Positions 5,251-58,789 of a stretch of DNA of 64,000 bases are shown in pieces. The notes under the pieces were generated by a model. It did no database searches. It was given only the letters and a program-made list of their open reading frames with translations, and was not told the DNA's origin. The DNA is taken from positions 1,296,054 to 1,360,053 of the forward strand of contig NW_004457695.1 in the NCBI RefSeq assembly GCF_000203815.1. The letters are read 5' to 3'. The position numbers and the translations under genes were made by a program. Source of the DNA: Dictyostelium fasciculatum. Its lineage: Eukaryota. Within the stretch, counting starts at the first letter, position 1; each line of letters opens with the position of its first letter.

Positions 5251-8200
5251 TAATAATAATAATAATAATGCATCTGCAACCAAAGTAGCAGAGAAAAGTC
5301 CAACCAACTTTTCATTATCGTTAAATAATAGTAATAATGCAGTACATGGTAGATCGACAACACCATCGTCACCATCTTTAAAGGGTCGACAGAGTAGTGT
5401 CGATCTTGGTCAACACAGTAAACATAGTCCGTGTCTAGGAGGTGATCCTTTGACATGTGAAATTGCAACTTCATCTACTCCTTTATTGTCTCAATCATCG
5501 AACGCCGCCACCTCTGTGACAGCAGCCGCTGAAAAGAAAAAGAAAAAGAGAAAGAAACAAAAGGTTAACTTGTGGCATTTTATCACTAGCTATCAAATCA
5601 TTGAAGGGTGTTCAATACTATTTATACTCTTTCTGATGGTTTTGTTATCGTTTGGGTTGTCAGTAAGCTACTTTTCATACACTCATTATCGACAAGAAGA
5701 AAACAAGAATATCGAAGCTGACCTTGAACGAACGACCAAACAATTGATACACAACTTTGACGTTGCCACTACAAGTGTATATTATGGTTTAAATTCCGTA
5801 AAAGTATGAAGACACACAGACATTCAAAAAACAACACAATAGATATCTTTCTTTATTATTGCAATAATTAATTCATTTTAATTAACCTTTTTGCAAATCA
5901 TCCATCCATCCTAGGGATTGTATTATACTTTGCCAACATTTAATAGAACAGAATATTTGGTATTTCGAAATATATCAATGTACAATACAAAGACTGATAT
6001 GAAGAATTGGTATTGGGTAGTTAAAGTATGGGACAAAGACCGAGAAGAATTTGAAAAGACAAATAATTTGGTCATCAAAGAATGGACTGGATCAAAGTTT
6101 GAAAGATCAGGAACTAAAGATTATTATTTCCCCATTCTTTATATTTATATGACCAATCATAAAACTGTACCTACTGAAGAAGGTTTTGATGTTTGTATCT
6201 TTAAATTTAAATATTTAAAACTCTTATTAACTATTTCTCTTCTCTTTTTCTTTCTTTTTAAATCTTAAATTTTAGGAATTAGTTGGATATGATTTACAAG
6301 GACATCAAGGATATGGAGCAACTATTGTAGATGCAATGAATAATCCTGGTATATCTTTATCATTTACTCAACCTTCATTATCAATGTATATGAATCAAAC
6401 GTCGGATATCATTCTGCTGTCTACCCCTGTATTCAAGAATGCAGTGTTTCCACTAAACGAGGAGGACAGACTAAAAGAATGTGCTGGGTTTTCAATTGGA
6501 CTATTTGTCATTGGTGACTTTATCCAACAATCTGGTGTCAATATCGATAACTTTATGGATATTGATCTCTTTATCTCGGATGCTTTTCACAATGTACTCT
6601 ATCAAAGCTCAACCTACAACCTCAAGAGAACAAACAATGTCGCAGACTCTCCACACTTTAGCGGTCGACAACGATACATCTCGACGTTTGAGTTGGCAGA
6701 CTCCAAGTTTTACTTTATCACCTTTTCGACAAAGTCATTCGAGGATATGAGCAGAACATCGTCGCCGGTATTGGTCGCCGTCATCTCGGGCGTACTCACC
6801 ATCATTGTTCTGGTCTACTTTTGGGAGCAGAAACGAAAGCGTCACTACATTGACAAGATCATGAAGGAAAAGAGTGAATTGCTCAACAAGATCCTTCCCC
6901 AAGAGGTGTCTGTCAAACTCGAAAATGGAGAGGACGTCGTAGCCGAGCGATCCAACGCAGCCTGCGTGTTTTTCCTCGATATCGCAGGGTTCACCCGGTT
7001 CTCATCGATCCATACACCCGAGCAGGTCATCCAAGTGCTCATCAAGATATTCAACATTATCGACAACCAATGTGCCGCACATGGTGTCGAAAAGATAAAG
7101 ACGATTGGAGACGCCTATATGGCAACTGTAGGCATTTCACCAAAGTCTGACGACATGAAGAAAAACACAGAGATGATGCTCGACTTTTCATTGGCCACAC
7201 TCGAAGCTATCCAGCTCGGTGTAGCCAGCCATCTCGGTCTCAAGGTGCGAATCGGTATTCATTGCGGACCTGTCATATCAGGTGTCATCTCGGGTGACTC
7301 TAAACCACACTTTGACGTGTGGGGTGACACTGTCAATGTCGCATCGCGTATGGAGTCGACCGGTCTACCCGGCTATATCCACGTATCAGACCGTGTCTAC
7401 CAGATCAGTCGCGACCACTTTGAATACTCGCACGAATGCAAAAAGATCTTTGTCAAGGGCAAGGGTGAGATGAAGACATGGTTTTTGGCCGGCAGACGTG
7501 ACCCCAACACCCCATTCAACCGAGCACTCGATCTCGGACACAGTATCGACTCCTCACCAAACTACCGCGAAATCTCTCCCCTTGCCAGTAGTATGGCTGC
7601 GGGTGCACACCACCTTCCTCATGAAATGGACTATCTCAACATTGAATCACCAACAATCAGTCCCATCAAACTAAAGTTTAATCATAATATTAGACTTGTA
7701 ACAATTGGTGATCAAGATATTATTCAAGTTTATGCACCATCTACAAGTAGTGGTAGTAGTAGTGGTAAAAGCGAGACATCAAGTAATATTAGTAATACAG
7801 ATACATTAAGTCAAATTAGTAGTAGCAGTAGTAGTGGTAGCATTATTGAACAATCTCACCGACACGAAAAGAAGATACTACCAAAGGGTGATTGGAGTGG
7901 ATACTCTGCACCTAACCTCCCTCAGGTCAAACACACATACTCCCCAATCCAACCTCTACAACTACAACAACATGGTGGATGTATGGGAGCACAAAAGATA
8001 CTTGATAATGGGTTGATATATAGTCCCGATTCATGTGCACCTGGTAACCACCCACCCACACGTAGAAACTCACATACTTTTAACCATGTACACGGATACT
8101 TTGATAGTGCCAAAGACCACGCAACACACTTTGTAGAGAACCGGTGTCAGAGAAGAGACTCAGTGCAACGAAGTTACTCACCTCATGGTCTACGTAATCC

Positions 8201-8861
8201 ATCACCTCTACAACTTTATAATTCTTCTAGTCCCGGATCACCCAAAATCATCGCACAACAACAGCAACAGCAACAACTGCAATATCAACAATTTCAACAA
8301 CAACCACCACCATTATACCATCATCATCATCACAATTATTCGACATCACCACAACATCATTCACCTAAAGTTTCACCAATGCCAATTGTACTACCACCAC
8401 CATACAATAGCAGTTTATCACCCTATCGAAGATTATCTGGTAGTGGTCCACAAGGACTGATGATTCATTCACCACCAATTGTCAACAAACCATCGACAAT
8501 GGGTGGTGGTGGACAATCCACACCTCCTGGACAATACATGTGTCCTATTCATCACCAACCCGACGAAAGACCAGGTCATCCTCACCAAGACCCAGGTCAA
8601 GAAAAGCCAATCAACAAATCATCACCTCGAGGTGGCAAACAAACACAACAACAACCTCAACGTTGTCAAATGTGTAAATTCTCTAAAAACTATTACCAGA
8701 AACTTGGAAACTCTGCCTTTTTGACATCATTTTCACCTGCCTCATTCCAACATGAATGTGATGACAACAATAATAACATACATTCTCCAGTTGGAGGATT
8801 AGCTAAAAAGAATAATCATGATGACGAAGATGAAAAAGATTGGTGGAGTGTTTCAATTTAA
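5153..8861 (+). CDS. acgA: Membrane adenylyl cyclase with an extracellular CHASE-type sensor domain and a single class-III cyclase catalytic domain (ACG-like). Exons 5153..5803, 5915..6190, 6276..8861
   Basis: Catalytic core ERSNAACVFFLDIAGFTRFSS...KIKTIGDAYMATVG...RIGIHCGPVISGVISGDSKPHFDVWGDTVNVASRMESTG carries the metal-binding Asp residues, the Asn/Arg transition-state residues, and Lys (KIKTIGD) plus Asp (FDVWG) at the substrate-specificity positions. That combination means ATP specificity and a homodimeric enzyme. Architecture: poly-Asn N-terminus, KKKKKRKKQK followed by TM1 (signal anchor), a ~330-aa extracellular domain spanning three exons, TM2 (PVLVAVISGVLTIIVLVYFW), the cyclase domain, and a long Ser/Pro/Gln-rich tail. 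Introns 5804..5914 and 6191..6275 are phase 0 with GTATGA/GTTTGT donors and AG acceptors; reading frames are continuous. Only ACG among dictyostelid cyclases has a single-TM-plus-sensor layout, so the symbol is tentative. Confidence 0.85.
5188..5271 (+). repeat. (AAT)n trinucleotide microsatellite encoding poly-Asn inside the cyclase exon 1
   Basis: About 27 consecutive AAT codons are directly visible; the antisense strand gives the poly-Tyr/poly-Leu artefact ORFs 5116..5474 in the track. Confidence 0.95.
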
Positions 8862-23777: not shown

Positions 23778-26034
23778 ATGTCATCACCTGCTAGAACAAG
23801 AGCATTATCAGTATCATCTGATAAAGCTAGAAATGGAAATCTAAAAGATGTGGAAAACTATTACAAAAATATTAAAAAGAATTTAATCGATTTCCAATAT
23901 GAATTTACTGTAAACTTAAAGAAAAAGGATAAAACTAGACAATTATTATATAATTTAAAAGAAAATACTATTCAAATTTTCAAGTATGTAAAAGAAATAA
24001 TATTAATAATAATAATAATAATAATATTTCCAACAATTATTAATTTTATTTTTATTTTTTAGATTATCAAAAAAAGGAAATAAGAAGAGTAAATTAAAAA
24101 AATATCAAATGGATGATTTTGAAAGAATATGTAAAGATAGATCGGATAACAAATTATTGATACTCACTAAAAAAGGTGGAAAAAAGGAATTATTGTTATC
24201 ATTTTTAAATCCAGAACGACGTGAATCGCTGTATGAATTGCTATGGTTGTCAAGAGGTGATAGAACAAAGACAGTCCCGAGCAAAGAGGAAAAGGCACCA
24301 TTCGATAAAATTTCATTATTTATAACGACTTGGAATGTTGGTGATGCACAACCATCGGCCGAACAATTACATCATTGGATACCAAACAAAAATCAACATG
24401 ATATCTATGTTATTGGTGTTCAAGAATGTGATTATCAACCCTCATTTAGTAGTAGTAGCAGTAATAGTAGTAGTAGTAGTAGCAGTAACGCTACTAGTAC
24501 AACTGGTAGTTCAAATCCATCATCATCATCATCAACACCAATATCAACATCACCACCATCAACACCACCAATCACTGTAAAATCACATACACCACCTTCA
24601 TCATCTGGATCACAAACTGATTGTGCCGAACATTGGTTTCAGATGTTATCCAATCATCTTGGTCACAATTATTTTAAATTGCAATCGATTAGTTTGGTCA
24701 AGATGCGTCTGGTGGTATTTGTCAAAAAGGAGCATTATTACAAGATCAATCATATCGAACGTGAAAGCGAGGCCACCGGTGTTGCTGGCATATACGGCAA
24801 CAAAGGTGCAACCGCCATTTCATTTAAATTCCTAGAATCATCCTTCCTCTTTATCAACAGCCATTTTGCAGCACACCAAGAAAAGATTGAACAAAGAAAT
24901 CAAAACTACCGAGACATTATCAAAGGTCTAAACATGGGATCGAAATCAAAGACTGACATTTTAAATCAATTCCATCATGTATTTTGGATGGGTGATTTCA
25001 ACTATCGTATCGACCTCTTTCGTGAAGAGACACTTGTCGCTATCCAATCGAAAAACCTAGGTAAACTAGTTGGAAACGACCAACTTGGACGCCAAAAACT
25101 TAGCGAACGTGTGTTTGTTGGATTTAGAGAACCACCCATTAAATTTATGCCAACCTACAAGATGGAACGTAATACAGTCGGAGTGTACACAACAGAAAAG
25201 AGTAGAGTGCCATCATACTGTGACAGAATCCTCTACAAACCACTACCATGTGCGCCAATGACATCGTGCACACAATACGACTCTGCTACGACCGTCACCA
25301 CCTCTGACCACAATCCAGTGTTTGCAGTCTATGAAACCTATGTTCAAAGACCGTGTCTCCCAACCCAACGAAATCAATCCAAATGTACCATTGAACTGTT
25401 GGATGTAGGTGCACTACAACTCGACCTCGATGAGAATGGCGCTCCACCCGACCCTTATCTCTTTTTCCATCCCTCAACATTTTTAACAAGTCCCGTTGAA
25501 ACGGCTCATGCCTCGGCAAGTCGATGCCCAGTATGGGGTGATCTCCCACCTCTAGTTCCATGTATTTATAAGAAATCATTCCTTGAAAACCAACATCTAC
25601 TCATCTCTGTGTTGGACTATAGAGAATCACCACCACGTAAAATAGGGTATGCCTCTATACCTCTTATGCTTGGATTTACCAAAGAGCCATACTCTTTTCA
25701 AACAAGAATCACCAAATATGGTGTCAGTTCTGGTATTCTATATGGCAAAATCCATATCATATCAGAAGATGAACAACAACAATTACTTTACAATGTAAAT
25801 CAATTTCCAACTACTACTACTACCAGTAGTACTATTCCTACTACACCTTCAACTGCAACAAGTACAACAGTGGCTTCAACCTCTACAACTACAACTTCAA
25901 CTGCTACAACCGAATCTAATCAACCAATTGTAACTTATAATTCTAATAATCCAAATCAAAATAATCAAAATAATAATAATGGAATCGATCCATCAAAACA
26001 ATTACATCGTAGATCAACAAGAAAAAGTATCTAA
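23778..26034 (+). CDS. Inositol polyphosphate 5-phosphatase (INPP5 catalytic domain). Exons 23778..23983 and 24063..26034
   Basis: Catalytic motifs WNVGDAQP, YVIGVQE, FVFWMGDFNYRIDL, PSYCDRILYK, SDHNPVFAVY. Exon 1 ends ...QIF + AA, then a GTATGT..TTTTAG intron (23984..24062) joins in frame to LSKKGNKKSKLKKYQMDDFE.... C-terminal ~200 aa followed by a Thr/Ser-rich tail. Confidence 0.9.
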
Positions 26035-28230: not shown

Positions 28231-31200
28231 TTATTTAGATGGATGATATAATAAATAATAAGTATTACCATTTGAATCACCAGTGACAATTTTGTTTTGA
28301 CGACAGTCCATAGAGGTGATTGGAGAGTTGTGAATAAATTCATTTTCGATTTCCTCCTTTTCAATGTTGTATACAATGAGACTGGTATCCTTGCTGGCCG
28401 ATACAATGTGTCTATTGTCAATGAATTTAATGGAAGAGATGGCATCCTTTTGAGAGGTGTTGATCGATTGGAATTGTTTCTTTTCCAAGTTGAAAATCTC
28501 GACGTTTCCTTCAAATGTACCGATTGCCAATAACTTGCTGTTGGGTGAGAATGCAAGTGATGTGATGTACTTGGTATCAGACATTGATCGGAGCGTGGTG
28601 GATGAGAGATTGGGAGTGGTCATTGTGAACTGGTTGGAACGACCAGCCGAGGCAATACACTCACCGTCACCTGAAAAGGCAAGACATTCAACCCAATCAG
28701 AGAGATGACATAGTTGATTGGTAGCCTTTTCCGACCATAGATGTACCTTGGTATCCCATGAACCAGTGACAAAGGTATCGAATTGTTGGAATGGTGCAAT
28801 GGCCGACACCTTTTCATTGTGTACCTTGAATACTTGAGAGGTGAGTAGATCCTTGGCATAGACAACAACTTGTCCATCTTCACAACCAATCACTAGTTTA
28901 CCTTCGAGTGTGAAAGCGACAGACGATGGAGCTGGACCAAATGAACGGATAGTCTTGACAATAGCATGTGTCTTGGTGTCGTAGACTTCGGTAGAGAGAC
29001 CCTTGCGCACAACTGCGACCAATGAACCGTCGAGTGAGAGTGCGACTTGAACAACAGAGTCACCAGCTTGAGATGGGATGGCTTGGGGTGCGAGTTCCCA
29101 AATCTTGACACTTCCATCGTTGGATGTAGAGGTGATGAGCTTCTTGTTGGCACTGCCTTGGATCTTGTCATTCTTGGCAGCAAAGATGGATTGTGGGATG
29201 GAACTAGAGTGACCGGTTAGAGTCATGACACACTGGCCAGTGGTGGGGTTCCAACACTTGATGAGACCATCGTCAGACGATGAGAGGATGCGACCAGTGC
29301 CGTCACCCAATTGCACAACATCACTGATACGAGACTGGTGGTGAAGGGTAGTAATCTCGCTACCAAACTCGGGATCCCATATCTTGATGGTATTGTCAAA
29401 GCTGCAACTGACAATGTACTTGAGGTCGTTGGTGAAAAAGGCACGCTCGATTGAACCCGTGTGTCCCTTTAGTGAGAGCAACTCCTTCTTGCTATTCATA
29501 CTCCACACCTTGATGTTAAAGTCCCAGCCACCTGAAACGATTCGCTTAGAGTCTGGTGCAAACGTGCAGAAATTGACCCAGTCAGTGTGACCGAGACACT
29601 TGCCAACCTCCTTGTAGCTGGCGGCCAAGTAGATGGTGATGGAACAGTCACGCGAGACAGTTGCAATGTACTTGCCGTTGGGAGAGAATGTGCAGCTCTT
29701 GATGGTGTTGGTCGAGCCTGGCAAGTGGGTGATGGGCGACAGTTTAGTGCCGTTCCAACGCCAAATGTTGGTGCGGTAATCGTCAGAGCACGAGATGAGT
29801 GTGGTTGTGTCGGAGGCAGTGTCGGTTGGGTTGAATGCGAGACAGTTGATCACTTCAATGTGTGCGTCCTTTTGGTAGTACTCGACGGATCGCTCGGCAA
29901 TGTTCCAGACGACGATTGCCTTGTCCTCGGACGTGGATGCCAACCAACGCTCGTTGCCAGAGAGTGCGACACTGGTGATGGCACGGGTGTGGGATTGTGG
30001 CAGCTTGGCAACGAGCTTGAACGAGTTACCAATGACTTCGTAGAGACGGATGATACAGTCGGAGCATCCTACAGCCAACACGTTGTTCTTGGGACTCCAC
30101 ACCATACAATTGGCCCATGCGTCACCGTCCATCTTGATCTGTCCGAGTTCGCAGCCGAGTGTTGGTGTCCAGACCTTGAGCGAAGAGTCGTCAGAGCTAG
30201 TGACAAACTGCTCTCCATCCTCTGAGAATGAACAATAATTGGCCGACTTGCTGTGACGACCAATGACAGAGAGCAACTTGGACGATGCAATGTCAAAGAG
30301 CAATACGGAGCCGTCCATGGCGGTCGCGATCATTTGTTTGGCACTTGGAGAAAACTCGCAGCTCTTGAGCGACCCCTTGATCTGGGTCGACACGTCAATG
30401 ACGTTGTTTGGCAACCACACGTTTCTGTTTACACGTTTAGCACCCTTTCCAAGGTTACTGTTGATGATCATGGCAACTTCGTTGATATTGTTGACGAGGT
30501 TGGCGACATTCCAAATCTTGATCGATCCGTCCCAACTGCATGTGGCAATCATCGTGCCGTCCTTGGTGAATGCACAGTGATTGACTGGCTTGTCATGTGC
30601 ATAGATCATCTTGACGTACGAGTGTGTGCTGAGGTTCCACATGACCAAACGACCGTCCAAACCAACCGAAGCAAACAGGTTGGCGTCCACGGGTGAGAAA
30701 CGTACACTTGTGACCGAACGGTCGTGTCCTCTGTCGAGAATATGTAGCGCCGATCCAACTACAACATCCCAAATAACAATCTTGTTGTCTAAACCACCGC
30801 TGACTAGTGTCTTGCCATCCTTGCTAAAGGAGAGTGAGCTGACCCAGTCGGTATGACCCTCGCCAAGAATCAACAACTCTGCGCCGGTTGGTCCTAACAG
30901 ACGGATACTCGAGTCTTTGGCGGCGACAGCCATCATCTGGCCGTTTGGTGCCCATGCGACGGCAGTTGTTCCCTGTCCGAATCCCGAAATGGTCTGGATA
31001 CAGCTGTCGCGTGTTTCTGGCTTGTTGTTCCACTCGACCCACGACTTTTTGTTGATCTTTTCAGCCAACTTGGCCACCTTGTGTGCGTGGCTGGTGGATG
31101 GCTGATTCATAGCCTGTTGGAAGACAAGTTGTGGAGACTTGGAGAGGATGTGTGCATTGGTCGAGAGCATTTGGAAAAAGTCGGTGATATTCGAGACGAT

Positions 31201-34200
31201 TGAGAATTGCTTGGCTTTGGCCGAGCTCATTGATCCTGAGCTCTTTTGCTGGGTAGCGTTAAAGTTGATGGTGGTAGTGCCGTCGTCTTGGCCACCTCCA
31301 ATGACCAAGAGATAGTCGAGTAGCAATTGACTGGTCATACCATGCTTGCACTTTTGTTCGACAAAGTTGAGGTTACAAAGGATCGATTCAAGCACTGCTG
31401 TCTGCTTGGAGTGGTAGTGATGGTAGACAATTTCACTGAGTGCTTTGGGGTCGGCACCATGGTAGGTTTGGTTGGCCTGTGGATCGGCACGCTCCATGTA
31501 AAAGGTGGCAAACTGCTTGTGGATACGTTCGGTCGAGTCGCTGGTAGTCAGGTACTTTTTGACGACCGCCAACTTCATTTGGTTGTGGAAAAAGTCGATT
31601 GTCTGGTCGTCACCATTGACTTGGACAAGAGACTGAATCGAACGGAATATCTTTGACCATATACCAATTGGCAGCAACTCTTCACCTAGTTCTCTACGTG
31701 CGGATAATACACGGAGATCCATTTCAGTGAGACCGATACGCGAACTGGCAATCGAGCCGAGTATACTACCAATCAACAACTTTCCACTGTCAGTTTCGAG
31801 ACGTGTGAGAATGTCTTGGAAGAGGACTGCAAGAGTTGGAGACAGCGATTTGATCTTGTCAGTGAGCTCTTGGAAGCCACCAAAGTAACGAAGTTCCTCG
31901 CAGGCCAACACGAGGTAGAGGGGGTTGGATGCGTCGGCCTTGTTCATGAGCATCTTCATTTGGTTGTTGGTGACTGACTCGTCGAGACGTTTGCGGTAGT
32001 CTGCAAGCTTGGTAGTGACAAGTGTCTGTGAGTCACGTGCGTCCATGGGGTCGACGGTCACTTCGAGCGGGCCACCCTTACGACGCTTGAGGATACTAAC
32101 GCTATGGTCACCATCAACCGATGTGATGATAGTCTTGACGGGTGACACGTTGGGAATCCAGTCGAGTGACTTGGCATTAAACTTGTTCTCAAGTTGATCA
32201 ATACCGTCGATAAAGAGGTAGATGTTTGCCTTGACAGACGCCTTTTTCAAGAGTACTTGGAGATAGATCTTGAGTTGTTTGTAGTCTGTTGGGATGGCCG
32301 ACACATCAACATCTGTTAAACCAGCCTTGGTGATGACTTGGTGACAGAGACGGTGGAGCATGTTGACTGCATTGGTCGACTTTAGTGTCGAGCCGACAAA
32401 ATGGTGCAATACAACCATTGGCAACTGACTCTTGAATTTGTGACGACTCTCTTGACGGAACTTGACAATATCATTGATAAACTGAGCTACGAGCGTTGTC
32501 TTGCCACATCCAGCCTTTCCAGTGAGCAACAAGATGTTGGACTTGTTGGTGGATGACTGTAACTTGGATACCTTGGGACTAGTTCCAAACGGACGAATAA
32601 CATCACAAAACTTGTACAAGCAGTTGGTTTCATCCTTGCGTCCAACAAACGACTTGGTCTTGAGGTCACGGTACACTTGCTCTTGTTCATCTTGTTGTTT
32701 CATCTCGTCGATTGCTTCATCCGACTCTTGGGTGTCTGGATACTGCTCTACAATCTTGGACCAAAGATCTTCGAGTACACGCTCGCTAAACTCTTCCAAA
32801 CCAATCGTTTGTGCTTGGTTATCGACCACTTCAATGGCACGTGGACTGTAAGTGTAATAATTGCAGTTTTGTTTGATCTTGGTCTTGAGAGACTCGAGTT
32901 TACCTGCACTATCACTATCCTCACATTCAAACTGTGTCTTTAGCTCCTTTGGTACGGCTACGGGGTTACGAATGTAAAAGAGACAGTTCGAGTTGATACC
33001 AGTCGAAGTGTTGCAGAGGTTGGTAGCATGGATCATTTCCAACTCGGTGATGGAACGACCCTTTGGATAATTACGAATCCAGTCGTAACGAGGCTCCTCT
33101 GAAAGCTTGTAGTTTGTTGGTACCCAACCATAACGTTGACCTAGGAGACCGATAAAGAATGGACGGCAACGATCAACCTCGTCCAAACACAATTCAACCG
33201 ATCTGTTCTTTTGTGCCTCGTCTTCAGTAATACCCCAACGCAAATCAATTTCACTGATATGTATCTTTCTCTTGGCACAACGTTCTCTCAACTCCGGAAA
33301 GATATGTTTAACCATTTGATTTCTTTCACCATGCATATCCAAAAAGGTAGATGATATGAATACTCTAATATTTCTCCATGGTTTAATATAATTGGCTACA
33401 TTTCCTACCAAAGGTACAGTCTCTTCCTTTTTCTTCTTTTCAAGAATGATTGTTGATGGATTATTCTTGTTGTCAGTTTCACCACTGCTGGTTTGAGTGG
33501 TATTGATAGTGATTGATTTTAATTTCTTTAATTCATCAATCTTTTCAACATATTGAAGTTGTTGGTCGATAGCACCACGTTGAGCGATGAATTTAAGGAT
33601 GGAGTCTGAGAAACCAGCAATGTAAATGTCATTCTTGTGAGCAGCGTTGGCATTTTGTGTTTGAGCGTTGTTTGATTTACCAGACAAGTTGATATTGACA
33701 AAGAGCAACGATGGGTTGAGCTCTTGACGGTACTTTGTCAAAATGTTGGCACGGTGTACTTGCAATTCCATCTGGACGGTGGTATGGTTGAGCAACAAGA
33801 GATTGTCAATACGCTTTTGCTTCATAATCATACTCATAATATAATCGGTTGGGAATAGATTATCATTTGCATCGGCATCAAATAATTGTTCAATCGTCTT
33901 TTTAATTGATTCCATCTTTGCAAGAATTGAATCTCCCAAAACCTCAGTAGAGTCGTCCTCTGAGACAGTTGACTCTTCTTCTGGTTTGTCTTGATCATAG
34001 ACAGAATCAACCAACTTTTCAATTGGATGAAGGAGTGAGTTTCCAAGTTTATCCTTGCCAATTAAAATGACTTCACATTCTTCACAAACAAATTGACACA
34101 TGAGACCTAGTAATAGAGCATTGTCAAGTTGAGTGTATTTGCTAGCATGTGGGTCTCTAGAGTTACCACCGCTGCTACCACCAACATAGACAAACACAAC

Positions 34201-35772
34201 AGTTGTACCAGAGATTGGTTTAACATTGATGATGGTTGACAATTTGATGGCATTGTCAAGAGCTTGACGGTAACGGTCCAATAGATCGGCTGGTGGGAAG
34301 AACTCTGTTTTGATGTTCTTTTCAGTGGCGAGTGCACGCAACTTGGTGACATCGGTTGGAATCGAGTTGTAGGCAGCCAAGAATTGCATGGGGAAGGTGT
34401 TTTGCTTGCCAATCAATACACGATTCGATAGCATTCTAATGATATTATCGTGTACACGAGCATGACAACCGGTAATCAAGAGATTACGAAGATTACGGAG
34501 CATGGCCATAAAGGGTAGCTTGTTGGCATCGATCAGTTCAGTCCAAGTGGTCGACTTGTTACCCTTTTCAGAAAGCATAGTCTCCCAAGTCTCTGGGATT
34601 GGTAACTTCATTCTAGTACCTGCACGTTCAGCTTCAAAGTCACCTGGCAACTTTGTCTTTTGGTAATCCTCATAGGTGAGTGGATACTTTTTACCAAGAA
34701 TACACATGATACTATAATTTGGCTTGGAAATATGAAGTACTCTAATCATTTGTTTTAATGATCCAGTTTGTTTCTCTTCAAACTCCTTTGTTAATCTATC
34801 CTTTTGTTCTGGATTCTTTTTAATCAATGACTAATGAAAAGATAAGTTAATATTTGTATTTTGTATATTTCTTTTTTTTTTTAATGCATACCTTTAACTT
34901 CTTTCTATTTCTTTTAATTTTACCTTCAGTATTGTATTTACCTAACTGATAAGTATCAAAATCAGTAAACTTATCAACCATTACATTTCTTAAAGATTTT
35001 GGAATAGTCTTTGAACTAAAGTTAGAAAAAAAAAAGAAAATGTAAAGGTTAGTAAACATATATCTATATTTAAAGGATACATTTAATATTTTGTTTCATT
35101 TTCTTACCTTAACAATTTGTTTGTAATGTTTGGGATTTCTAACCAATCTGATGGAAGACGAATAGTTGATTGGTAATACTTTTTGAGGTATGGTTGACAG
35201 GGAGGGATGACAGAAGCAAGTGCCATGAGATAATTGGCGACTGTTCGAATACCCAATTCCTGACGGGTGTACAATGACAACTTGAGAATAAACTCTGGGT
35301 CAAAGTAGGCGACGTGGTAGACATTGGTGATGATGTTTTCAAGTGCCGGTGTAACCTTGTTGAAACGTGGCTCCTTGATCAACGACGACGAGACAATGTT
35401 GATGAGCTCGAGCTTTTTCTCGCGCAATTGTATTTGGTCCAACATTGCAAATGCTCTGGTTTGAAGATCACTAAAGAATTGTGATTGTGTGAGACTGATG
35501 ACATCGTCTTCAACGTGGTCGCCGGCGGCAGGTCTGGGTAGTCTTTGTGGTGCAGCTCCACCTCTTTGTCTTGGCGATCTGGCCGAGGTGGCAGTTGCTG
35601 GTCTTGGTTGTCTTTCTGTTGCAGATGTGGGTGCTGCTTGGGGTACTGCTGAGGGTTGCGAGTTGAATCCACCTCTTCCTCCACGTGATGGTGTTGCTCC
35701 GCCTCTTCCGCGGCCTCCACGTAATGGTGTTCCTGCTCTTAAAGTGCCTCTTGTTCTTCCAGTGCTACTCAT
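28231..35772 (-). CDS. TROVE-NACHT-WD40 giant protein (TEP1 / telomerase- and vault-associated protein 1-like, ~2460 aa). Exons 35108..35772, 34892..35015, 28231..34830
   Basis: The N-terminus is RGG-rich. The TROVE domain is split over three exons (YFDPEFILKLSLYTRQELGIRTVANYLMALA...|...|...KLPFMAMLRNLRNLL...). A NACHT P-loop NTPase follows (ILLLTGKAGCGKTTLVAQF), then >20 WD40 repeats through the C-terminus. Introns 35016..35107 (GTAAGA) and 34831..34891 (GTATGC) are phase-consistent. The track ORF 34827 'M' is an in-frame TTG. Confidence 0.85.
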
Positions 35773-39131: not shown

Positions 39132-41952
39132 TCAGTTTGTTGAAATGGCATTTGAAAGAGTTGAAACAAATTTGGTAACAAATTTAGAGTGTAATCTTTG
39201 AATGTCTGTAGATTTGAAACCAAGTGTCATGAGATGACTAGTTTCATCGATGATGATTTCGACAAGGAACCAAGGTCCATCATCTATTTGTTTGGCGTGA
39301 TAATATAATTTAGTGACTCCATCTACACTACCATAGGCAAGACATTGAATACCCTCGGTCGTCAAAACACTCTCGATTCTATCAATCTCTGGCATTTGAT
39401 TCAATTGTATCGACATTGCATGACCCTCTTCAAGTGACATCCACATCTCTTGGAATTGACCAGTATCAATCTCTGCTGCCTTTTCCAATGTAAACAGGCT
39501 AATTAAATTGTTGGTCGATGAATCCAATTGATGAGATACATCAACCAATTGTAATAATTGTTGTTGTTGTGATTCCATTTTTGGTGAAATATTATTATTA
39601 CTATTATTATTATTATTATTATTTGTAGGTGGAGTACCAGTTTTGGTTGGTGAAATCAATAATTGTTCTTTGATGATTTTTTGTTTTTCCAATAATGTTA
39701 AAGGGTTTTTAATAAATGATGTTGAATGTTTACCATAAACTATTGATAATGTATTAAATTCTTCAAATATTTTATCCTTTTTAAGATAGAAAAAGAAAAA
39801 AAGTAAGTAAATTGATTTTCTTTTTCTCTTTCTTTTTTTTTCTTTTTTTTTTGCTTACTCTAATTTCTAAAATTTCATCTTCAACAAATAAAGTACTTGT
39901 ACTATTATTATTAATATTATTATTATTATTTAATTTTGTATTAATGATTGAGGAAGTTTTTTCCAAATCATAGATTAGAGAACGATAATAGAAAAGGAAT
40001 TGGTCACGTAAATCTGGACTACAATTTATAGATGAACATTCCTCTAATATCATCATCATGATTGGATAAATTTCACCTGATCTATTTTCTCCATTTTCTT
40101 TCTTTTTAGCCAAATAAATTCGAATCACTGCTATTAATAGTTGAATTTTGATGTTGGATGGTTGGTCATTGAATTTAGAGTCAAAGAATTGTTCGATAAT
40201 GTATGGTATTTGTTGTTCAGAGAATGGGAATTCACCAAACATCCACAACAATGCTTCTATTGCATCCGATTCCAAATTGACATGTACCAAATGTTCAACC
40301 ACCAATGGTAGTACTTGATCTGCTTGATTTGGATAGAACCTAAGAAAATCTTTCAATGCCGATACGGTATATGAAATGACAATTTCCAAATTACTTGAAA
40401 GGAATGTAGTGTAAATATCAAGTACTGTACTTGACAGAGATTCAATTTTTGCTACTATAAATGAAATAGCTTCGATTGGTTGTTTAATAAATTGAATGTC
40501 ACCTTCAAATACATATTCACTTAATTCCTCTACAATATCTTTTGCATTTGTTTCACTTATCAATTCTCTTAGAATCTTAATTTTTAAATTTTTAATATAA
40601 AATGGATCTTTTGTTCTAAAAAAAAAAATAAAAAGAAAGAAAGAAATTAACTTTATATTATGTTCATTATTTATATTATATTTTTGTTTGTTTACATACC
40701 GACAATAAAAATATTTAAAATCATGTTTAAATAAATCAGGAGATCTACTCATCAGTAGATGAATATGAGATAGAATTGTAAATTGTATTTCATTTGAATC
40801 TGTATTATCCATCAATGTAATAAGTGGATCCTTTAATCTTTCATATACTTGTTCATGTATATTTGGTTCATTTTCAGTGATTTGAAGGAATAATTTAATA
40901 ATTGACAATACCAATGCACTATTTGATTGTTTTAATCTATCATCAAATAAATTCTAAATATAAATTAAAAAATTAATATCTTTTCTTTTCTTTCTATTCT
41001 TTTATCTTTTCTTTTCTTTTTTGTATCATACCAAGAAATCAAAAATTTGATCTTCAGAAATTAATTTAAATCTTGTTAGAGTATTGATTATGGTTGTTTG
41101 ACCCCATTCATTAACTTGTTTATATTTTGCCAATAGATGGTTGACTAGTGATGGACTGACCTCCCAATTTGGACTAATCTCATCCAAAGTCAAGATGGCA
41201 TTGACAATGACCTGTCCATCTTGATCCATCATCATACCATAAATCTTTGGCATGTGTTCTTCAAATGTCTCCTTTCGTGCATCCACTGGTGATATATTGT
41301 ACAATTTTGCCAATCCCATGATCGCAGTCTTTCTAACATATGCCGATGCGTCTCCCAATCCTTTTAATACTCCTCTAAATGAATAATCAAATGTTGTCAT
41401 TGAGCTAAAGAAATAAAATTATTATTATTGATTAGTCATTAAAGTTTTCAATTTTTGTTGTTTTCAATGTTTGTTTCTCTAATATCTACTTTAAAGAACA
41501 TAAACTACGTAATGCCAAACCTCTAATCATTGGATTTGGATCTAAACAATCTCTCTACAAAATGAATGATAGATATTAAAAATCAATAATAATAAATGAT
41601 CTCTATTTCTCTTTCTTACACTTAGAGTATTAATAACCAATAGTAATAAAGAATCATTTGAAGAACCAGATACAGCATAGTTGCATAGATAGAGATATAC
41701 TAATTTCTTGACGACGACATCAGTTGTATTGACAACCATGATAATGTCTGGGAATAATGGTGATACGTCAATACCCATAGTCATGTAATACACTACTCTC
41801 TGTAATGTACTCTTTATCTTTTCAGTATCTCTTTCGTTTGATGCATTCTTTAGTAATGTTCGAAGTTCACTAACTTCTCCTTTTTTTATCTCTGAAAAGT
41901 ATGAATGATCTTGTTGTTGTTGTTGTTGTTGTGGTTGTTGCCTACTACCCAT
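39132..41952 (-). CDS. AP-4 adaptor complex subunit beta (AP4B1-like, ~808 aa). Exons 41620..41952, 41490..41554, 41032..41404, 40700..40953, 39859..40615, 39132..39776
   Basis: Colinear with human AP4B1: RVVYYMTMGIDVSPLFPDIIMVVNTTDVVVKKLVYLYLCNYA (cf. [42 protein letters not shown]), RDCLDPNPMIRGLALRSLCSLK, ASAYVRKTAIMGLAKL, ...DQDGQVIVNAILTLDEI, adaptin trunk repeats, and a C-terminal appendage (...GPWFLVEIIIDETSHLMTLGF...SKFVTKFVSTL, cf. GCLFLTELLLEPG...NSFISVLETV). Five introns (GTAAGA, GTAGAT, GTATGA, GTATGT, GTAAGC donors) have phases that link all four track ORFs. Confidence 0.9.
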
Positions 41953-42029: not shown

Positions 42030-45000
42030 TTTTCACCTTGAAGTGTGAAGTAGCGGAGTACACTCCACCCCCTTTTTTTCAAACCAAATTAAATTATATT
42101 TCTATTTTTTTTACTCCACATCAAAGTACACTCTTCATTAATCATTGTGATATGTTTTATTTATTTATTTATTTATTTCTTTATCAAAGAAAAGTACTAT
42201 GAAAATACCAGATGAGTACAGATGATCAATGTATGTTAACAGATATGTGATACAAGTGTTCTCTGACTTATTTTGCTCTTAGACCCTAGTGATGACGATT
42301 ATGAAGGTGATAGCGATTATGAAGTGGAAGAGATGAAGCAATTCTTCGGCAATATTCAAGAAACATATGAAGATAATGGTGGTTTTCAAGAAGAGGATGA
42401 TGAAGAAGATGATGAAGAGGAGGAAGAAGAGGAGGAAGAGGAGGAGGAGGAGGAATATGATGGAATAGATGTACAACTGCAACAACAAGAAGGTGATGAC
42501 GATGATCAACAAGAAGAGAGTAACAAAAAAAGAAAGAAAACATCAAAGACCCCCAAGACCATTCCTTATAATACTCATGGTATGCATTATGATCTGACTC
42601 TTTACAGTTTACACCCATTATATTAATACCTATCCATTCAAAACAACAACAATAACTATAACAAGGCATTAAATATGGAGAAGAATTGAAAACACGCGAA
42701 TGCGATCATGTCCCAATGCGACTAGCGCCTCTTTGCGATTGTTTCATTGATAAAGAAAGAAATCCTCCTCCTGGACATAGATTCAGCTTAGAAGAAGTGG
42801 CTGCTATTGAAATAAGGGGTCCTTCCTATATCGTCGAATATATGGTCGATAAATTTCTTAACGATCTTGTTTTTCAAACCAATAAGTATGGTGTAATAAG
42901 CAGATATCGGTGGCATGTGGTGCTAACTATAAAATACTAATGTATCTTCTTTATTTCTATAGGTATATTGAAGATATCAGAGAGAAATTCGTGGAGAAAG
43001 AAAGAAAACCTTGGTTTTTAAAAGGACAACCCATTAATATAGTTCAAATGAAGGCATACTTTGGCCTATTCCTTCATATGGGTATAGTAAGATCATCTAA
43101 CGTTCAAGATAGATGGAAACAAACAACTGATAGGCTCTCCACCTCAATGCCAGTCTATAAAAGTATTATGCCATTCCAACTCTTTAAAAGAATACATAGG
43201 TGTGTTCATTTTGAAGGCTACAGCATGGAAGATGGTGTCCCTACCAACTATGACCATTTGGTAGATTATTTCAATGGAAAAATTAAAGAAAAATATATTA
43301 TGTCGAACTGTCAATCATTTGACGATGATTTGTATGGATGGTCTGGTCGTGGTGGTCAAAAAAAGAGAATTCCTGGTAAAGCAGATAAAGAAGGGAATGA
43401 AATATGGAAGTTGGTGGATCAGGACAATATATTTATCACTTCGAGTCTGAATACCACTGTAAAGGTCAGTTGAAAGAAGGTCAACAACTAAACCAGCGTA
43501 TTTTGGATAAAACTATCAGTGGTATAAAAAATCTCACAGTTGATAAAGGAGAAGTGATTGTAATCGATGCAGGCATATTGGGATCTGTTAGAAATGCCAT
43601 CAAATTGCATGAATCTCATAAACCTTCATCATATCAGTTAGTAGAAAGAATTGTATGGATGTTTTTAATCCAATCATCCTTGGTGACTTAATTAAAATCA
43701 TTAAAGACTCTGAATCCTCTTCCTCCAACACTGATGAAGCTATTCAATCCCTACTTCGAAAAAGAAATGGAAAGAAATCTGATATATGTTATTTTAAAGA
43801 TGGCGAATATATAAAATATGGATCATGTGAAGCTTTTACAGCCATTGCTTGGAAGGCCAAAGCTAAAAAGGTGGTCTATTTTCTCACAAATATTCCTTAT
43901 CCTTTAGTGCCATTCAAAAAGAATGTAAAAGAAAAAAAAATGTAAGTAAAACCATCTATTACCCATCGTTTATTACTACCCATCACCACAGTTACTAACT
44001 TAATAATATTATTAGTATAAATGGCGTAAAATCGTGTATCACTGTTGAAAGAGATGTCCCACGTGTAGCTGAATGTTACAACTATTGTCATAACTTTGTG
44101 GATGCTACTAAAATGGTGATAAACAGATCTAGGAACATCCAAAAGCAGAGGTCATTTTTCCGGGTGATGCTTCATGATATTTTTTACATTGCCTTGTATG
44201 ATTCCTATATTCTATACAAGCAAGTTGTGAAAGATACGCCTCTCAACTTTCAAAAATTTCTTTTAGGCGCCATCAATACATATTTTTTGCCACCACTAGA
44301 TACTATTGACATCCGTACACCGAATGTATCAGCTCCTTACACATTTAATACCGTCGATCTAACTCCACTGATAAAATACTACCCAACACATCCCCAAGGA
44401 GCAAAGAGACCAAACTGTTATGATTGTAAAAATGGCATAAAGGAAAAGCGAGTGGAACTAGTTTGTCCCTGCCATGGCAATCCTTTCCATCCAGATTGCT
44501 CCGAAATCTTTCATAACTCCCATCTTACCTTTAGGTCGTATCCAATTACACAAGAAAAGAGGACACAAGTACCACTTAGTATTATACAGCAATCCAATGT
44601 TTCCCAATCTAAAAATAGCCAATCACAGTAGAAGCACCTACTCGTTAATGGTCACCACAACCATGCTGCCAATACGATTTATATACTCATCACCATGTCC
44701 CCTATTGTATCGTACGACCCTTCTTAGATTTGACCAATCGTCGATGACATTTGGCCTTCCTGCCATCTCTCTTACTTACTGTTGTCTATGTGCCACACTC
44801 CCTCAATATGGCTGTCCAGACAAAACTATCCACTTGGACATCTTGCATCGAGAAAAATGAATAATCTTGTGCCACCCTGTAAAGAACACATGCCCCTACC
44901 ATATTCTTCAATTGCCTCGTTATTCCACAACAATACCCTCAACATAGCCTCAACGATATCCATGACATACCTCAATACATCACCTCTTTTCCAGGACATC

Positions 45001-45275
45001 CATCTTCTAGACGATTCAATCTCCTTTTACCAATTTTTGGATACTCACCCTTCCCATACCAAGCTATTGACCCAAAAAAAAATTAATCGATCCGAGGTTC
45101 ACTTGCGCCTTGTGCCTCACCCACACTCCCCCCACCTACCCCACAGATACAAAAAAAACAAATAAAATTTTATTTTATGTAGTTCCTGAATTCAAAAACC
45201 ACAACCACCTGGGGGTGGAGTCAACTCCGACTATTCACTTTTACAGGCTTGAAACCTTCACACTATAAGGGTTAA
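42030..45275 (+). mobile_element. piggyBac-superfamily DNA transposon, ~3.2 kb, with degenerate terminal inverted repeats. The right end is ...CACTATAAGGG|TTAA (TTAA at 45272..45275); the left end is decayed (about 42030..42075)
   Basis: The internal ORFs encode a piggyBac transposase (see the pseudogene feature). The reverse complement of the right terminus, TTAACCCTTATAGTGTGAAGG...GGAGTTGACTCCACCCCC, matches the left terminus TTTTCACCTTGAAGTGTGAAGTAGCGGAGTACACTCCACCCCC, with the terminal TTAA/CCC mutated and about 25 nt missing internally. Confidence 0.85.
42333..44631 (+). pseudogene. piggyBac transposase (DDE_Tnp_1_7-like), intron-containing and frameshifted. Canonical introns at 42580..42665, 42886..42962 and 43942..44015; frameshifts near 43436..43455 and 43650..43720
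   Basis: Colinear with T. ni piggyBac transposase: acidic N-terminus; RGPSYIVEYMVDKFLNDLVFQTNK (cf. RGPTRMCRNIYDPLLCFKLFFTDEIISEIVKWTN); YFGLFLHMGIV...MPFQLFKRIHRCVHF (cf. FFGILVMTAV...MSRDRFDFLIRCLRMDD); IPGKADKEGNEIWKLVDQDNIF; YHCKGQ (cf. YLGRG); ICYFKDGEYIKYGSCEA...KKVVYFLTNI (cf. MFCFDGPLTLVSYKPKPAKMVYLLSSC); YNYCHNFVDATKMVINRSRNIQKQRSFFRVMLHDIFYIALYDSYILYKQ (cf. YNQTKGGVDTLDQMCSVMTCSRKTNRWPMALLYGMINIACINSFIIYSH); C-terminal Cys-rich RPNCYDCKNGIKEKRVELVCPCHGNPFHPDC. Three of the five frame changes are resolved by GTATGC/GTATGG/GTAAGT...AG introns of 74-86 nt. Two are not resolvable by any intron, because both frames align to the transposase across a window shorter than 20 nt. Confidence 0.8.
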
Positions 45276-48106: not shown

Positions 48107-50169
<2,063 letters not shown>

Positions 50170-56952: not shown

Positions 56953-58789
56953 TTGGAATATGACCGATTATGTAAACCTCAATTCCTATCAAGTTTTAAG
57001 AATCTCACATCAATCAATTTACAATCGTATCAACCTTTAGAAAAAGAAAACAGAGAATCATTTTTGGCAATCCTATCAAAAACAATGACAAGAAGAATAA
57101 CCAAACTATTACTTCCAATCGATTGGTGCCGGTCGGTAAATCTTGACACTAAATTCAACCTAGGTATTGTCAATAGCAATATTATTCCACTACCACAAAT
57201 GAGAAATTTGAAAACATTCCATTATTACAACTATTCCTTATACCGTTCCTCATTTGATAATCCAAACCTTACAACTCTTGTCGATCATTCTTGTGGTGAT
57301 CATGGGAGTGGGTATATTAGCACATTTATCAACAGTCTTCCAACAACCATTTCAACAATCAAGCTCAAACCTGGCACCTCTCTCTTTAAACATTTATTTT
57401 CGGACCAAACTCTTGGTTTGTTGAATCTCAACAAACTATTAATAGACTATGATTTTGAAATAACTGATCAAATAATCAATCATTTTGCAAAGTATGGATA
57501 TCAATATCATGGGGCAAGATTTAAAGGTTCAACAACAAAAAGACAATTCAAATTTATTAAATCAACAACCAATGAACCACTAATTAGATCAACAAAATCA
57601 ACTACTACACCAACTTTTCAAAATGAAATTGTCCTTAATAATAATAATAATACAACACTTGCCTATTTTTTAATTGAAAAGATTGTTAGATACTCTTGGA
57701 ACAGTTATTATTGTACTTGTGAACAAATTACCAACCACAAAGACTCCATTAAACTACAATGTCAGCAACTATTCAATGCAAAATCAATATGCCCTGTTCA
57801 CAAGAATAGTGATACACCAAAGAAAGATACCGATGAAAATATTCTTTATCAAAATATTAATCAACTTCGATTTGGATTGTCGCTTGTATGCAAACGATTA
57901 TTTGAATTTATTTCAAAACATCTTATCAAGAATATATATATATATATCATATGCATATCAACACTCGGAAATCAGCAAGTACCAAACACATTTTTCAAAT
58001 CCATATTGTTTGCTTGGTAAATCAATTGAATACCTTGTCGTGGATTTTAGTCAAGATCAAAATAACCTTCACCTTGATCATAGCTATTCAAATGTAAAAA
58101 AGTTTAATACTGGATGTGGGTTTGGTCCCACAAAAAATCAAGACTTGCTTGCATCGATTCTTTCATTTAAATCACTCACCGAATTGGACTTGTCTAATTG
58201 TTCAGATATAACAATTAACTATTTAATGGATAGTCTAAAGAACTTGTCACTCAGAAAGCTCTTTTGCGGGAATGAACCGCCTCAGTCAATGTTTAAAAAA
58301 GATTCATGTCTATCAAAGTCATTGGAGGCAATATCAATCAATTTATCATTTTTGAAATATCAAAGTAACCGACAGGTATTGTACAATCTTTCTCAACTCA
58401 GACATCTCAGAATCATCTGCACCAAAAAACACAAAATATCATACGCCGACGGTATTTATAGACGAGTTGCTCTATCCCTTCCACCTGGTATTCTTAAAAA
58501 ATCAACAAATGATGCCTATGTCACGAGGATCATCATTCATAATCCTCAAATCAATCAATTGGTGATACTCGAGAATACTACACATTCCTATCGTGTTGAT
58601 CTAGTCTACCACCAAGATCTTTTCCAACTGAAAATCCAAAAGATTGTCATCATATCAAGTAAACACCAATATTTGCAGTTTTACAAACCAAACAACTTTC
58701 AATTCATTGGTGCTTTTGTGACAAATATGGATCAATCCATCGGTTGCAAGAGAGTCTACATAAAAAGAAAAATAAATCAATCCAATTAA
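56953..58789 (+). pseudogene. LRR-containing ORF, in the same frame as the 56068..56901 gene but separated from it by a single TAA, with an internal +1 frame change near 58010..58050; possible pseudogene
   Basis: 56068..56901 and 56953..58020 share frame 1 with only TAA 56899..56901 between them, and there is no AG that could define an intron removing the stop. 57674..58789 is frame 2 and carries LRR-like segments (LTELDLSNCSDITINYLMDSLKNLSLRKL). The only splice-like solution is a 34-nt GTAAAT..TTTTAG segment, which is shorter than any intron seen here. Confidence 0.4.

Follow-up and report, generated by a model that had tools for sequence, protein, structure and literature searches.

A putative inactivated piggyBac-like transposon with an apparently intron-split transposase gene upstream of an adaptin gene in Dictyostelium fasciculatum

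The locus described here lies in a 64,000-nucleotide stretch of Dictyostelium fasciculatum contig NW_004457695.1 (positions 1,296,054 to 1,360,053), hereafter the window, and consists of a 3.2-kb piggyBac-like element (PBLE) that spans window positions 42035-45271 on the + strand. Its transposase is encoded between 42.2 and 44.6 kb, also on the + strand, by open reading frame (ORF) fragments in differing frames, and the element occupies a divergent intergenic region, upstream of a minus-strand gene of the adaptin beta type. An initial annotation, made from the sequence alone, had read it as a piggyBac-like transposon with three spliceosomal introns in its transposase gene. The features of the locus, in window coordinates, are the following.

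42031..42034, no strand: degenerate left target-site duplication TTTC (TTAA expected); relatives carry TTAA there
42035..42050, + strand: left terminal inverted repeat ACCTTGAAGTGTGAAG, with the tip changed from CCC to ACC; 13 of 16 positions match the reverse complement of the right repeat; family tip CCCTTAAAGTGTG
42054..42072, + strand: left internal 19-bp inverted repeat CGGAGTACACTCCACCCCC, 3 nt (TAG) from the terminal repeat; 17 of 19 positions match the right one
42212..42230, + strand: possible first mini-exon ATG AGT ACA GAT GAT CAA T, uncertain, from frame analysis
42231..42282, + strand: possible 5' intron, 52 nt, GTATGT..CTGAC..CTTAG, uncertain, from frame analysis
42283..42579, + strand: exon 1, with an acidic N-terminus and a KKRKK stretch; first in-frame ATG at 42333 if there is no 5' intron
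42580..42665, + strand: predicted intron 1, 86 nt, phase 1, GTATGC..ACAAG; lineage-specific, weak acceptor
42666..42885, + strand: exon 2
42886..42962, + strand: predicted intron 2, 77 nt, phase 2, GTATGG..CTAAC..CTATAG; matches intron A of the Acytostelium subglobosum element
42963..43941, + strand: exon 3, transposase core with the catalytic motif D1 (SFDDD) and the putative catalytic motif D2 (IDAG); 1-nt deletions at ~43421 and ~43621
43942..44015, + strand: predicted intron 3, 74 nt, phase 2, GTAAGT..TACTAAC..TATTAG; at most one codon from intron D of the A. subglobosum element
44016..44631, + strand: exon 4, with the putative catalytic motif D3 (HNFVDATKM), the Cys-rich C-terminal domain and the stop codon
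44632..45210, + strand: 3' non-coding part, C-rich
45211..45229, - strand: right internal 19-bp inverted repeat, reverse complement CGGAGTTGACTCCACCCCC, 26 nt from the terminal repeat
45256..45271, - strand: right terminal inverted repeat, reverse complement CCCTTATAGTGTGAAG, CCC/GGG tip intact
45272..45275, no strand: right TTAA target-site duplication
41542..41952, - strand: adaptin beta-type gene, first exon and read-through into the first intron, with Adaptin_N matches

The proposed relationship to piggyBac was borne out by homology searches. Exon 3 alone matches the piggyBac transposase domain DDE_Tnp_1_7 (Pfam PF13843) with E=3.4e-21, and the 709-amino-acid (aa) conceptual protein, obtained after splicing and frame correction, does so with E=1.4e-29 and 104 bits (cutoff 22.4); this protein also matches the solved transposase structures of piggyBat (2.9e-5) and piggyBac (5e-4). 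The first catalytic Asp (SFDDD, equivalent to D268) lies in SFDDDLYGWSGR, which pairs with SLDEGIVPWRGR of piggyBat in the phmmer alignment. The putative second and third stand at the expected places in the family-invariant motifs IDAG.LG and HN.VD.TKM, by which they were assigned, outside the structure alignment. A Cys-rich, PHD-like domain (CYDCKNGIKEKRVELVCPCHGNPFHPDCSEIFHNSH) follows at the C-terminus, and its pattern, CYDC..CPCH..HPDC..H, is kept in H. album, A. subglobosum and other members of the family. No close or exact protein for the element was found in the protein databases searched, and these yielded no spliced product of the source species either. The 3' non-coding part is unusually C-rich and GC-rich for local non-coding DNA, with an AT fraction of 0.58 over 44632-45271. 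As a separate observation, the GC skew is -0.27 over 44001-45000, and two + strand ORFs of 127-128 aa, at 44474-44860 and 44782-45165, overlap each other.

The inverted ends of the element are the longest inverted repeat of the region. Their gapped alignment scores 45, as compared with 16.9 +/- 2.7 for shuffles (maximum 30) and with a 99th percentile of 31 for random pairs of real sequence, which agrees with the earlier description of terminal inverted repeats (TIRs) that are recognizable but decayed. Each end holds a flank, a terminal repeat, a spacer and an internal repeat, in this order; the flank and the spacer are TTTC and TAG (3 nt) on the left, and TTAA and a 26-nt sequence on the right, when the latter is read in reverse complement. 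The right spacer (45230-45255) holds a partial second terminal box, AAAGTGAATAG as compared with TAGTGTGAAGG, and the right-end spacer of the A. subglobosum element likewise holds the partial box CTAAGTGTAAG. The right end reads GGG-TTAA (45269-45275), whereas the left terminus is substituted, with TTTC-ACC where TTAA-CCC is expected.

A tip of the form CCC(T/C)TA(A/T)AGTGTG is common to family members from D. discoideum, D. purpureum and H. album, and is more diverged in A. subglobosum. It is found together with TTAA at both ends of the D. discoideum locus L003 and at the right end of the loci L004, L010 and, in D. purpureum, L005, and it is present at both ends of the H. album locus L001, where the flanks are ATAA on both sides. 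The A. subglobosum locus, L006, has TTAA on both sides as well. Because the loci of relatives bear the same tip, we take the TIRs of the window element to be real, its right end being the true end and its left end the homologous tip with substitutions.

The three GT..AG segments that split the transposase gene (42580-42665, 42886-42962 and 43942-44015) have precisely the boundaries, and the effect on frame and alignment, that the initial annotation had given them. Removal of each joins the correct frames and restores an ungapped alignment, at QG.K, at (S/Q)TN.Y and in the linker after TNIP, respectively. Around intron 1, frame 0 is open only up to 42626 and frame 2 only from beyond 42661; as the flanking frames do not overlap at introns 1 and 3, a single frameshift cannot bridge either of them. 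For comparison, nine host introns were collected in the window, eight by means of a consensus-blind scan that links ORFs and one by inspection of the adaptin gene. Their lengths are 65-117 nt, the donor is in most cases GTAAG or GTATG, and every one of them has TAG at its 3' end, as a rule preceded by a T-rich stretch. The window itself is AT-rich (~34% GC), and its host introns are short, as is typical of dictyostelid amoebae. The element introns, of 74-86 nt and with canonical GTA[AT]G donors, fall inside the host length range, and branch-like CTAAC or TACTAAC motifs are present in introns 2 and 3. The claim that they have the size and consensus of local introns can therefore be kept for length and donors, but not for their AT content, which is lower, nor for the acceptor of intron 1, which is weak.

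We judge from these features, and from the comparison with a relative given below, that the three segments are genuine introns, and that the transcript of the element would have been spliced accordingly at these junctions. A possible fourth intron, at 42231-42282, would give access to an upstream ATG at 42212; it is shorter than all nine host introns and without comparative support. Comparison of the introns with each other, with the flanking exons and with other window sequence revealed no similarity, all scores being inside the shuffle range. An origin of the introns from introners or miniature inverted-repeat transposable elements, or by tandem duplication, was for this reason rejected.

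Removal of the three segments had been said to make the reading frame colinear with piggyBac. The conserved blocks are indeed restored, but the spliced ORF is still not open, since two -1 frameshifts in exon 3, both inside family-invariant blocks, had been overlooked. One, at ~43421, separates WKLVDQ from GQYIYHFE in the block WKLVD..YIYHFE; the other, at ~43621, separates LHESHK from TFIISVS, just before FI(I/V)SV. These frameshifts are most likely real mutations and not assembly errors, since ~26 kb of window sequence in host ORFs of at least 250 aa, one of them 6.6 kb long, runs without interruption. As exon 3 is frameshifted twice and the left tip and its flank are both mutated, we regard the window copy as dead, a frameshifted relic. 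A single long intron over 43410-43648 was considered in place of the two frameshifts, and GT..AG candidates for it exist; it was rejected, as it would delete the family-invariant blocks YIYHFE and IDAG and with them a putative catalytic Asp.

The closest relative found is SAMD00019534_025990 (GAM19424.1) of A. subglobosum, with 41% identity over 230 aa. It corresponds to a complete element (5461-9573 of L006, DF837576.1) with good asymmetric TIRs and TTAA on both sides, whose 882-aa ORF is open only once four introns, A to D, are removed. The first annotated intron of this gene, intron A (ACCAATGA-GT..AG-GTAC), has an identical position and phase (phase 2) to intron 2 of the window element (ACCAATAA-GT..AG-GTAT), and the junction context of the two is ACCAAT[A/G]A-GT..AG-GTA. 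The last one, intron D (7918-8006), lies in the linker, 17 residues after TNIP, and is one alignment column apart from window intron 3, both being in phase 2. Introns B and C interrupt the motifs KQIH-RC and IDA-G, after KQIH and after IDA, respectively, whereas window intron 1 is missing from the A. subglobosum element. A rough estimate puts at ~1e-4 the probability that, by chance, two introns out of three agree in phase, and in position to within one codon, with two out of four. This conservation, exact for intron 2 and to within one codon for intron 3, upholds the earlier view that the introns are genuine. The NCBI model for SAMD00019534_025990, a hypothetical protein of 545 aa, has its last intron mis-called, and stops short of both the putative third catalytic motif and the Cys-rich domain.

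No synteny was detected between the window and the A. subglobosum locus by tblastx of the flanks, and the neighbouring genes are different, namely, adaptin-beta in the former and condensin Cnd1 in the latter. The introns would therefore have travelled with a mobile element. The non-coding ends of the two elements have no similarity except for their common end architecture. Judging by its intact ORF and ends, the A. subglobosum element may still be active.

Beyond this relative, homologues at 28-41% identity were found in H. album, D. discoideum strains, D. purpureum, Tieghemostelium lacteum, Polysphondylium violaceum, A. subglobosum and Synstelium polycarpum, the profile search having used exact pieces of the window and database proteins. 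Elsewhere, the members of the family are multi-copy or lie among other transposons. Scans of metagenomes for closer relatives yielded nothing close, with one contig at 31% identity. Seven copies from five other species (H. album, two from D. purpureum, two from D. discoideum, D. cf. discoideum, and T. lacteum L007) are colinear over the homologous positions that they cover, without any intron-like interruption, although several of them are frameshifted or bear stop codons. L009, also from T. lacteum, has a frameshifted sequence and tells nothing about introns. In a neighbour-joining tree of 460 columns, a bootstrap value of 92% supports the clade that unites the window element with those of Synstelium and A. 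subglobosum; copies that lack introns make up sister clades. Continuous copies of the gene had been named beforehand as a sign that the introns are copy-specific indels. Such copies do exist, in the number just given, but they do not refute the introns, because they sit in sister clades.

Several of these relatives deserve description in their own right. In H. album PN500, PPL_11147 marks an intronless 2.7-kb element (L001 9782-12493) whose ORF, of ~626 codons, is intact and which carries CCCCTAAAGTGTG at each end; the first annotated exon of this gene model and its 323-nt intron are probably prediction artefacts. The D. discoideum assembly GCA_054859355.1 contains two different members of the family. 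One of them (L003 8951-12138) is flanked on either side by TTAA duplications and its ORF is frameshifted, and the other (L010 5001-8044) has an intact intronless ORF of 938 aa and a right end that reads TTAA-CCCCTAAAGTGT.

Taken together, these results make it probable that the window element is one inactivated copy of an autonomous piggyBac-like DNA transposon, whose family is widespread in dictyostelids. By analogy with piggyBac, a transposase of the DDD type that carries a Cys-rich domain at its C-terminus would bind the asymmetric ends, excise the element and paste it into TTAA. In the clade formed by the window, A. subglobosum and Synstelium elements, the transposase gene would be split by short GT-AG introns of the host type, and the host spliceosome would therefore have to process the mRNA before any transposase is made. 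Since transposition goes through DNA, such introns would move along with the element to each new site. In a mobile ancestor of both the window element and that of A. subglobosum, introns 2 and 3 may have arisen, followed by gain or loss in each lineage, which would account for window intron 1, possibly the 5' intron, and introns B and C of A. subglobosum as lineage-specific. The window copy would have inserted into a divergent intergenic region of ~600 bp, 82 nt upstream of the adaptin-beta gene, at a site expected to have read GGAATTTTTGT-TTAA-AAAATAAAAAAAGG. Its function may then have been lost through the two 1-nt deletions in exon 3 and the mutation of the left tip and flank. We infer, on these grounds, past mobility of the element in its source genome. 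On the broader proposal, that an autonomous dictyostelid piggyBac clade gained introns while mobile and keeps turning them over (two shared and at least three lineage-specific), with an A. subglobosum member that may be active, our confidence is more limited, and we only lean towards it.

A number of observations weigh against this interpretation, and some of them bear on whether the element was domesticated. Whereas 5 of the 35 positions compared between the TIR arms are mismatched, the ORF runs through 709 codons without an in-frame stop, and simple recent decay explains this contrast no better than selection acting for a time on a stationary gene. Either the TIRs were imperfect from the beginning, or the ORF was selected for a while after decay of the ends had begun, and this is the main argument that remains for a domestication-like phase. 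In its full form, such an explanation would make the element a piggyBac-derived host gene, comparable to the PGBD genes, that acquired its introns while immobile and under selection, and that has either only lately begun to decay or is still intact. Multiple introns are otherwise a hallmark of domesticated PGBD5, PiggyMac and TPB2 (PMC5381638, PMC3902484), and the mutated left tip would render the copy immobile. The element is, moreover, the only copy in the 64-kb window, where tblastn and blastn searches with the protein, the ends and the introns gave low-complexity matches only. However, a domesticated gene would not be expected to keep recognizable TIRs with the family tip and a TTAA flank, nor to carry two frameshifts in its catalytic core; the closest intron-sharing relative of the window element is an entire transposon flanked by TTAA at each end, and its locus is not syntenic; other members of the family are multi-copy or surrounded by other transposons. 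We thus consider domestication improbable, and side with the initial annotation in calling the element a transposon, on the basis of its TIRs, its TTAA flank and a conserved tip common to other dictyostelid copies.

Other unfavourable points concern the introns and the catalytic motifs. The AT content of the element introns, 67-71%, is below the 76-93% of all nine host introns, and intron 1 ends in ACAAG, lacks a T-tract and has no counterpart in any relative. These features, together with the seven colinear copies, would be compatible with the segments being copy-specific junk insertions that begin with GT and end with AG by chance. This we hold to be very improbable indeed, given that two of the three match A. 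subglobosum introns in position and phase (intron 3 to within one codon), one of these being part of an NCBI gene model, that all three combine GTA[AT]G donors, host-like lengths and an exact restoration of the frame, and that the lack of similarity to each other, to the flanking exons and to the window means that they are not nested repeats. As for the transposase, the motifs around its putative second and third catalytic Asp (IDAG and NFVD in this copy, IDAG(I/Y)LG and HN(F/Y)VD in the family) deviate from the canonical piggyBac motifs DNF/W and GGVD, and both residues were assigned by these family motifs. Finally, the element could be intact, and possibly a live intron-containing transposon or gene, if the two frameshifts were homopolymer errors of the assembly. 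Both are single missing bases, the second beside short runs (CATAAACC), in an ORF that is otherwise without stop codons; but at a rate of one error per kb a 6.6-kb ORF such as that found among the uninterrupted host ORFs would survive with a probability of ~0.001, and the changes at the left tip and flank, TTTC-ACC for TTAA-CCC, are substitutions rather than indels. An intact element is therefore unlikely, if somewhat less so than domestication, and we retain the interpretation of a dead copy of a mobile, intron-bearing transposon.

The initial annotation had also regarded introns as uncommon in the ORFs of DNA transposons. Transposase-gene introns are common in other superfamilies of these elements, as in the P element, Ac and MuDR, so that this statement holds for piggyBac but not in general. 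Even within piggyBac there is an exception, namely, Pokey of Daphnia, a mobile PBLE with TIRs and one intron of 68-84 bp, whose splicing is needed for the full protein and has been confirmed by reverse-transcription PCR (PMC3849761). Pokey differs from the dictyostelid lineage in that its intron is single, as opposed to three or four per element that turn over between species and whose splicing is predicted from sequence; it also belongs to another host phylum and has no close sequence relationship to the window element. A review of the superfamily includes only Entamoeba invadens for Amoebozoa, and discusses introns only for domesticated PGBD5, PGM and TPB2 (PMC5381638). Similarly, PGBD5 has been contrasted with 'most other piggyBac elements', in which the transposase domain is intronless (PMC3902484). 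For D. giganteum, a 2026 preprint mentions 'piggyBac-like fragments' and describes them as 'not reported in D. discoideum', and we found no other literature on dictyostelid piggyBac elements.

When compared with T. ni piggyBac and piggyBat, the window element has the same DDE_Tnp_1_7 core, C-terminal Cys-rich domain, TTAA target, kept on its right flank, and 5'-CCC..GGG-3' tip, although the similarity is distant: phmmer comparison with the solved structures gives E values of 1e-5 to 1e-4. The ends are likewise asymmetric, as in T. ni piggyBac, with a terminal and a 19-bp internal repeat and with a short left and a long right spacer; in T. ni the repeats are of 13 and 19 bp and the spacers of 3 and 31 bp (PMC5861402). 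An extra AAAGATAATC box has been described in the right-end spacer of T. ni, and the partial box in the right spacer of the window element is similar to it. The transposase gene of T. ni piggyBac, in contrast, is one uninterrupted ORF, whereas that of the window element has three, possibly four, introns and belongs to a dead copy. Domesticated PGBD5, PiggyMac and TPB2 have several introns in the transposase-derived region too (PMC5381638, PMC3902484), but these genes are single-copy and syntenic across species, with intact ORFs under selection and without TIRs or target-site duplications; the window element has kept TIRs and a TTAA flank, its ORF is frameshifted and its intron-sharing relative is non-syntenic. 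The A. subglobosum element shares the end architecture, the positions and phases of introns 2 and 3 and the well-supported clade, and differs by its intact spliced ORF, perfect TTAA flanks, two further introns and lack of window intron 1. Thus, the kind of element is already known, and what we describe is a member of an undescribed, intron-bearing dictyostelid lineage of PBLEs.

This lineage is relevant to how introns are read in this superfamily. As piggyBac is usually one uninterrupted ORF, introns have been used as a mark of domestication, with Pokey and its single intron as the one documented exception. The presence of three to four introns per element, two of them conserved across species in elements that bear TIRs and TTAA, weakens this rule of thumb, and the dictyostelid PBLEs offer material on intron gain and loss in a mobile gene. 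If our interpretation is correct, they would make it possible to date and compare intron gains within a DNA transposon, and would be a case in which expression of a piggyBac transposase depends on host splicing. The family is essentially unannotated in the genomes of social amoebae, where it appears as 'hypothetical protein' or as truncated or mis-spliced models, and the intact copies of A. subglobosum and H. album are candidate native transposon tools.

With respect to the neighbouring gene, the left end of the element, at 42035, lies 82 nt from the ATG at 41952, in agreement with the distance of about 80 bp previously noted. Adaptin_N matches were found on three ORF pieces of this gene, covering most of profile positions 9-518; a homologue search with the adaptin exon gave only matches of ~30% identity, and some distant homologues are named AP-4 beta-1. 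The ORF pieces look intact, and therefore the insertion appears to have been tolerated. An effect of the element on the promoter of the adaptin gene is a conjecture, and the position of this dead copy upstream of it is of local interest only.

Elsewhere in the window, ordinary host genes encode a protein with a guanylate/adenylate cyclase catalytic domain (6336-8861, + strand), an inositol-phosphatase-like Exo_endo_phos2 protein (24109-26034, + strand) and, at 48107-49192 on the - strand, an exon of a DEAD-box helicase. Two + strand ORFs of 355 and 371 aa, at 56953-58020 and 57674-58789, overlap by ~350 nt in different frames and have no Pfam match; these could be a frameshifted or low-complexity gene. 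An uninterrupted ORF of 2198 aa (28231-34827, - strand) combines a TROVE domain with many WD40 repeats downstream of it, much as in the telomerase-associated protein TEP1, and lies in a local GC-rich patch, with ~50% GC at 29-32 kb.

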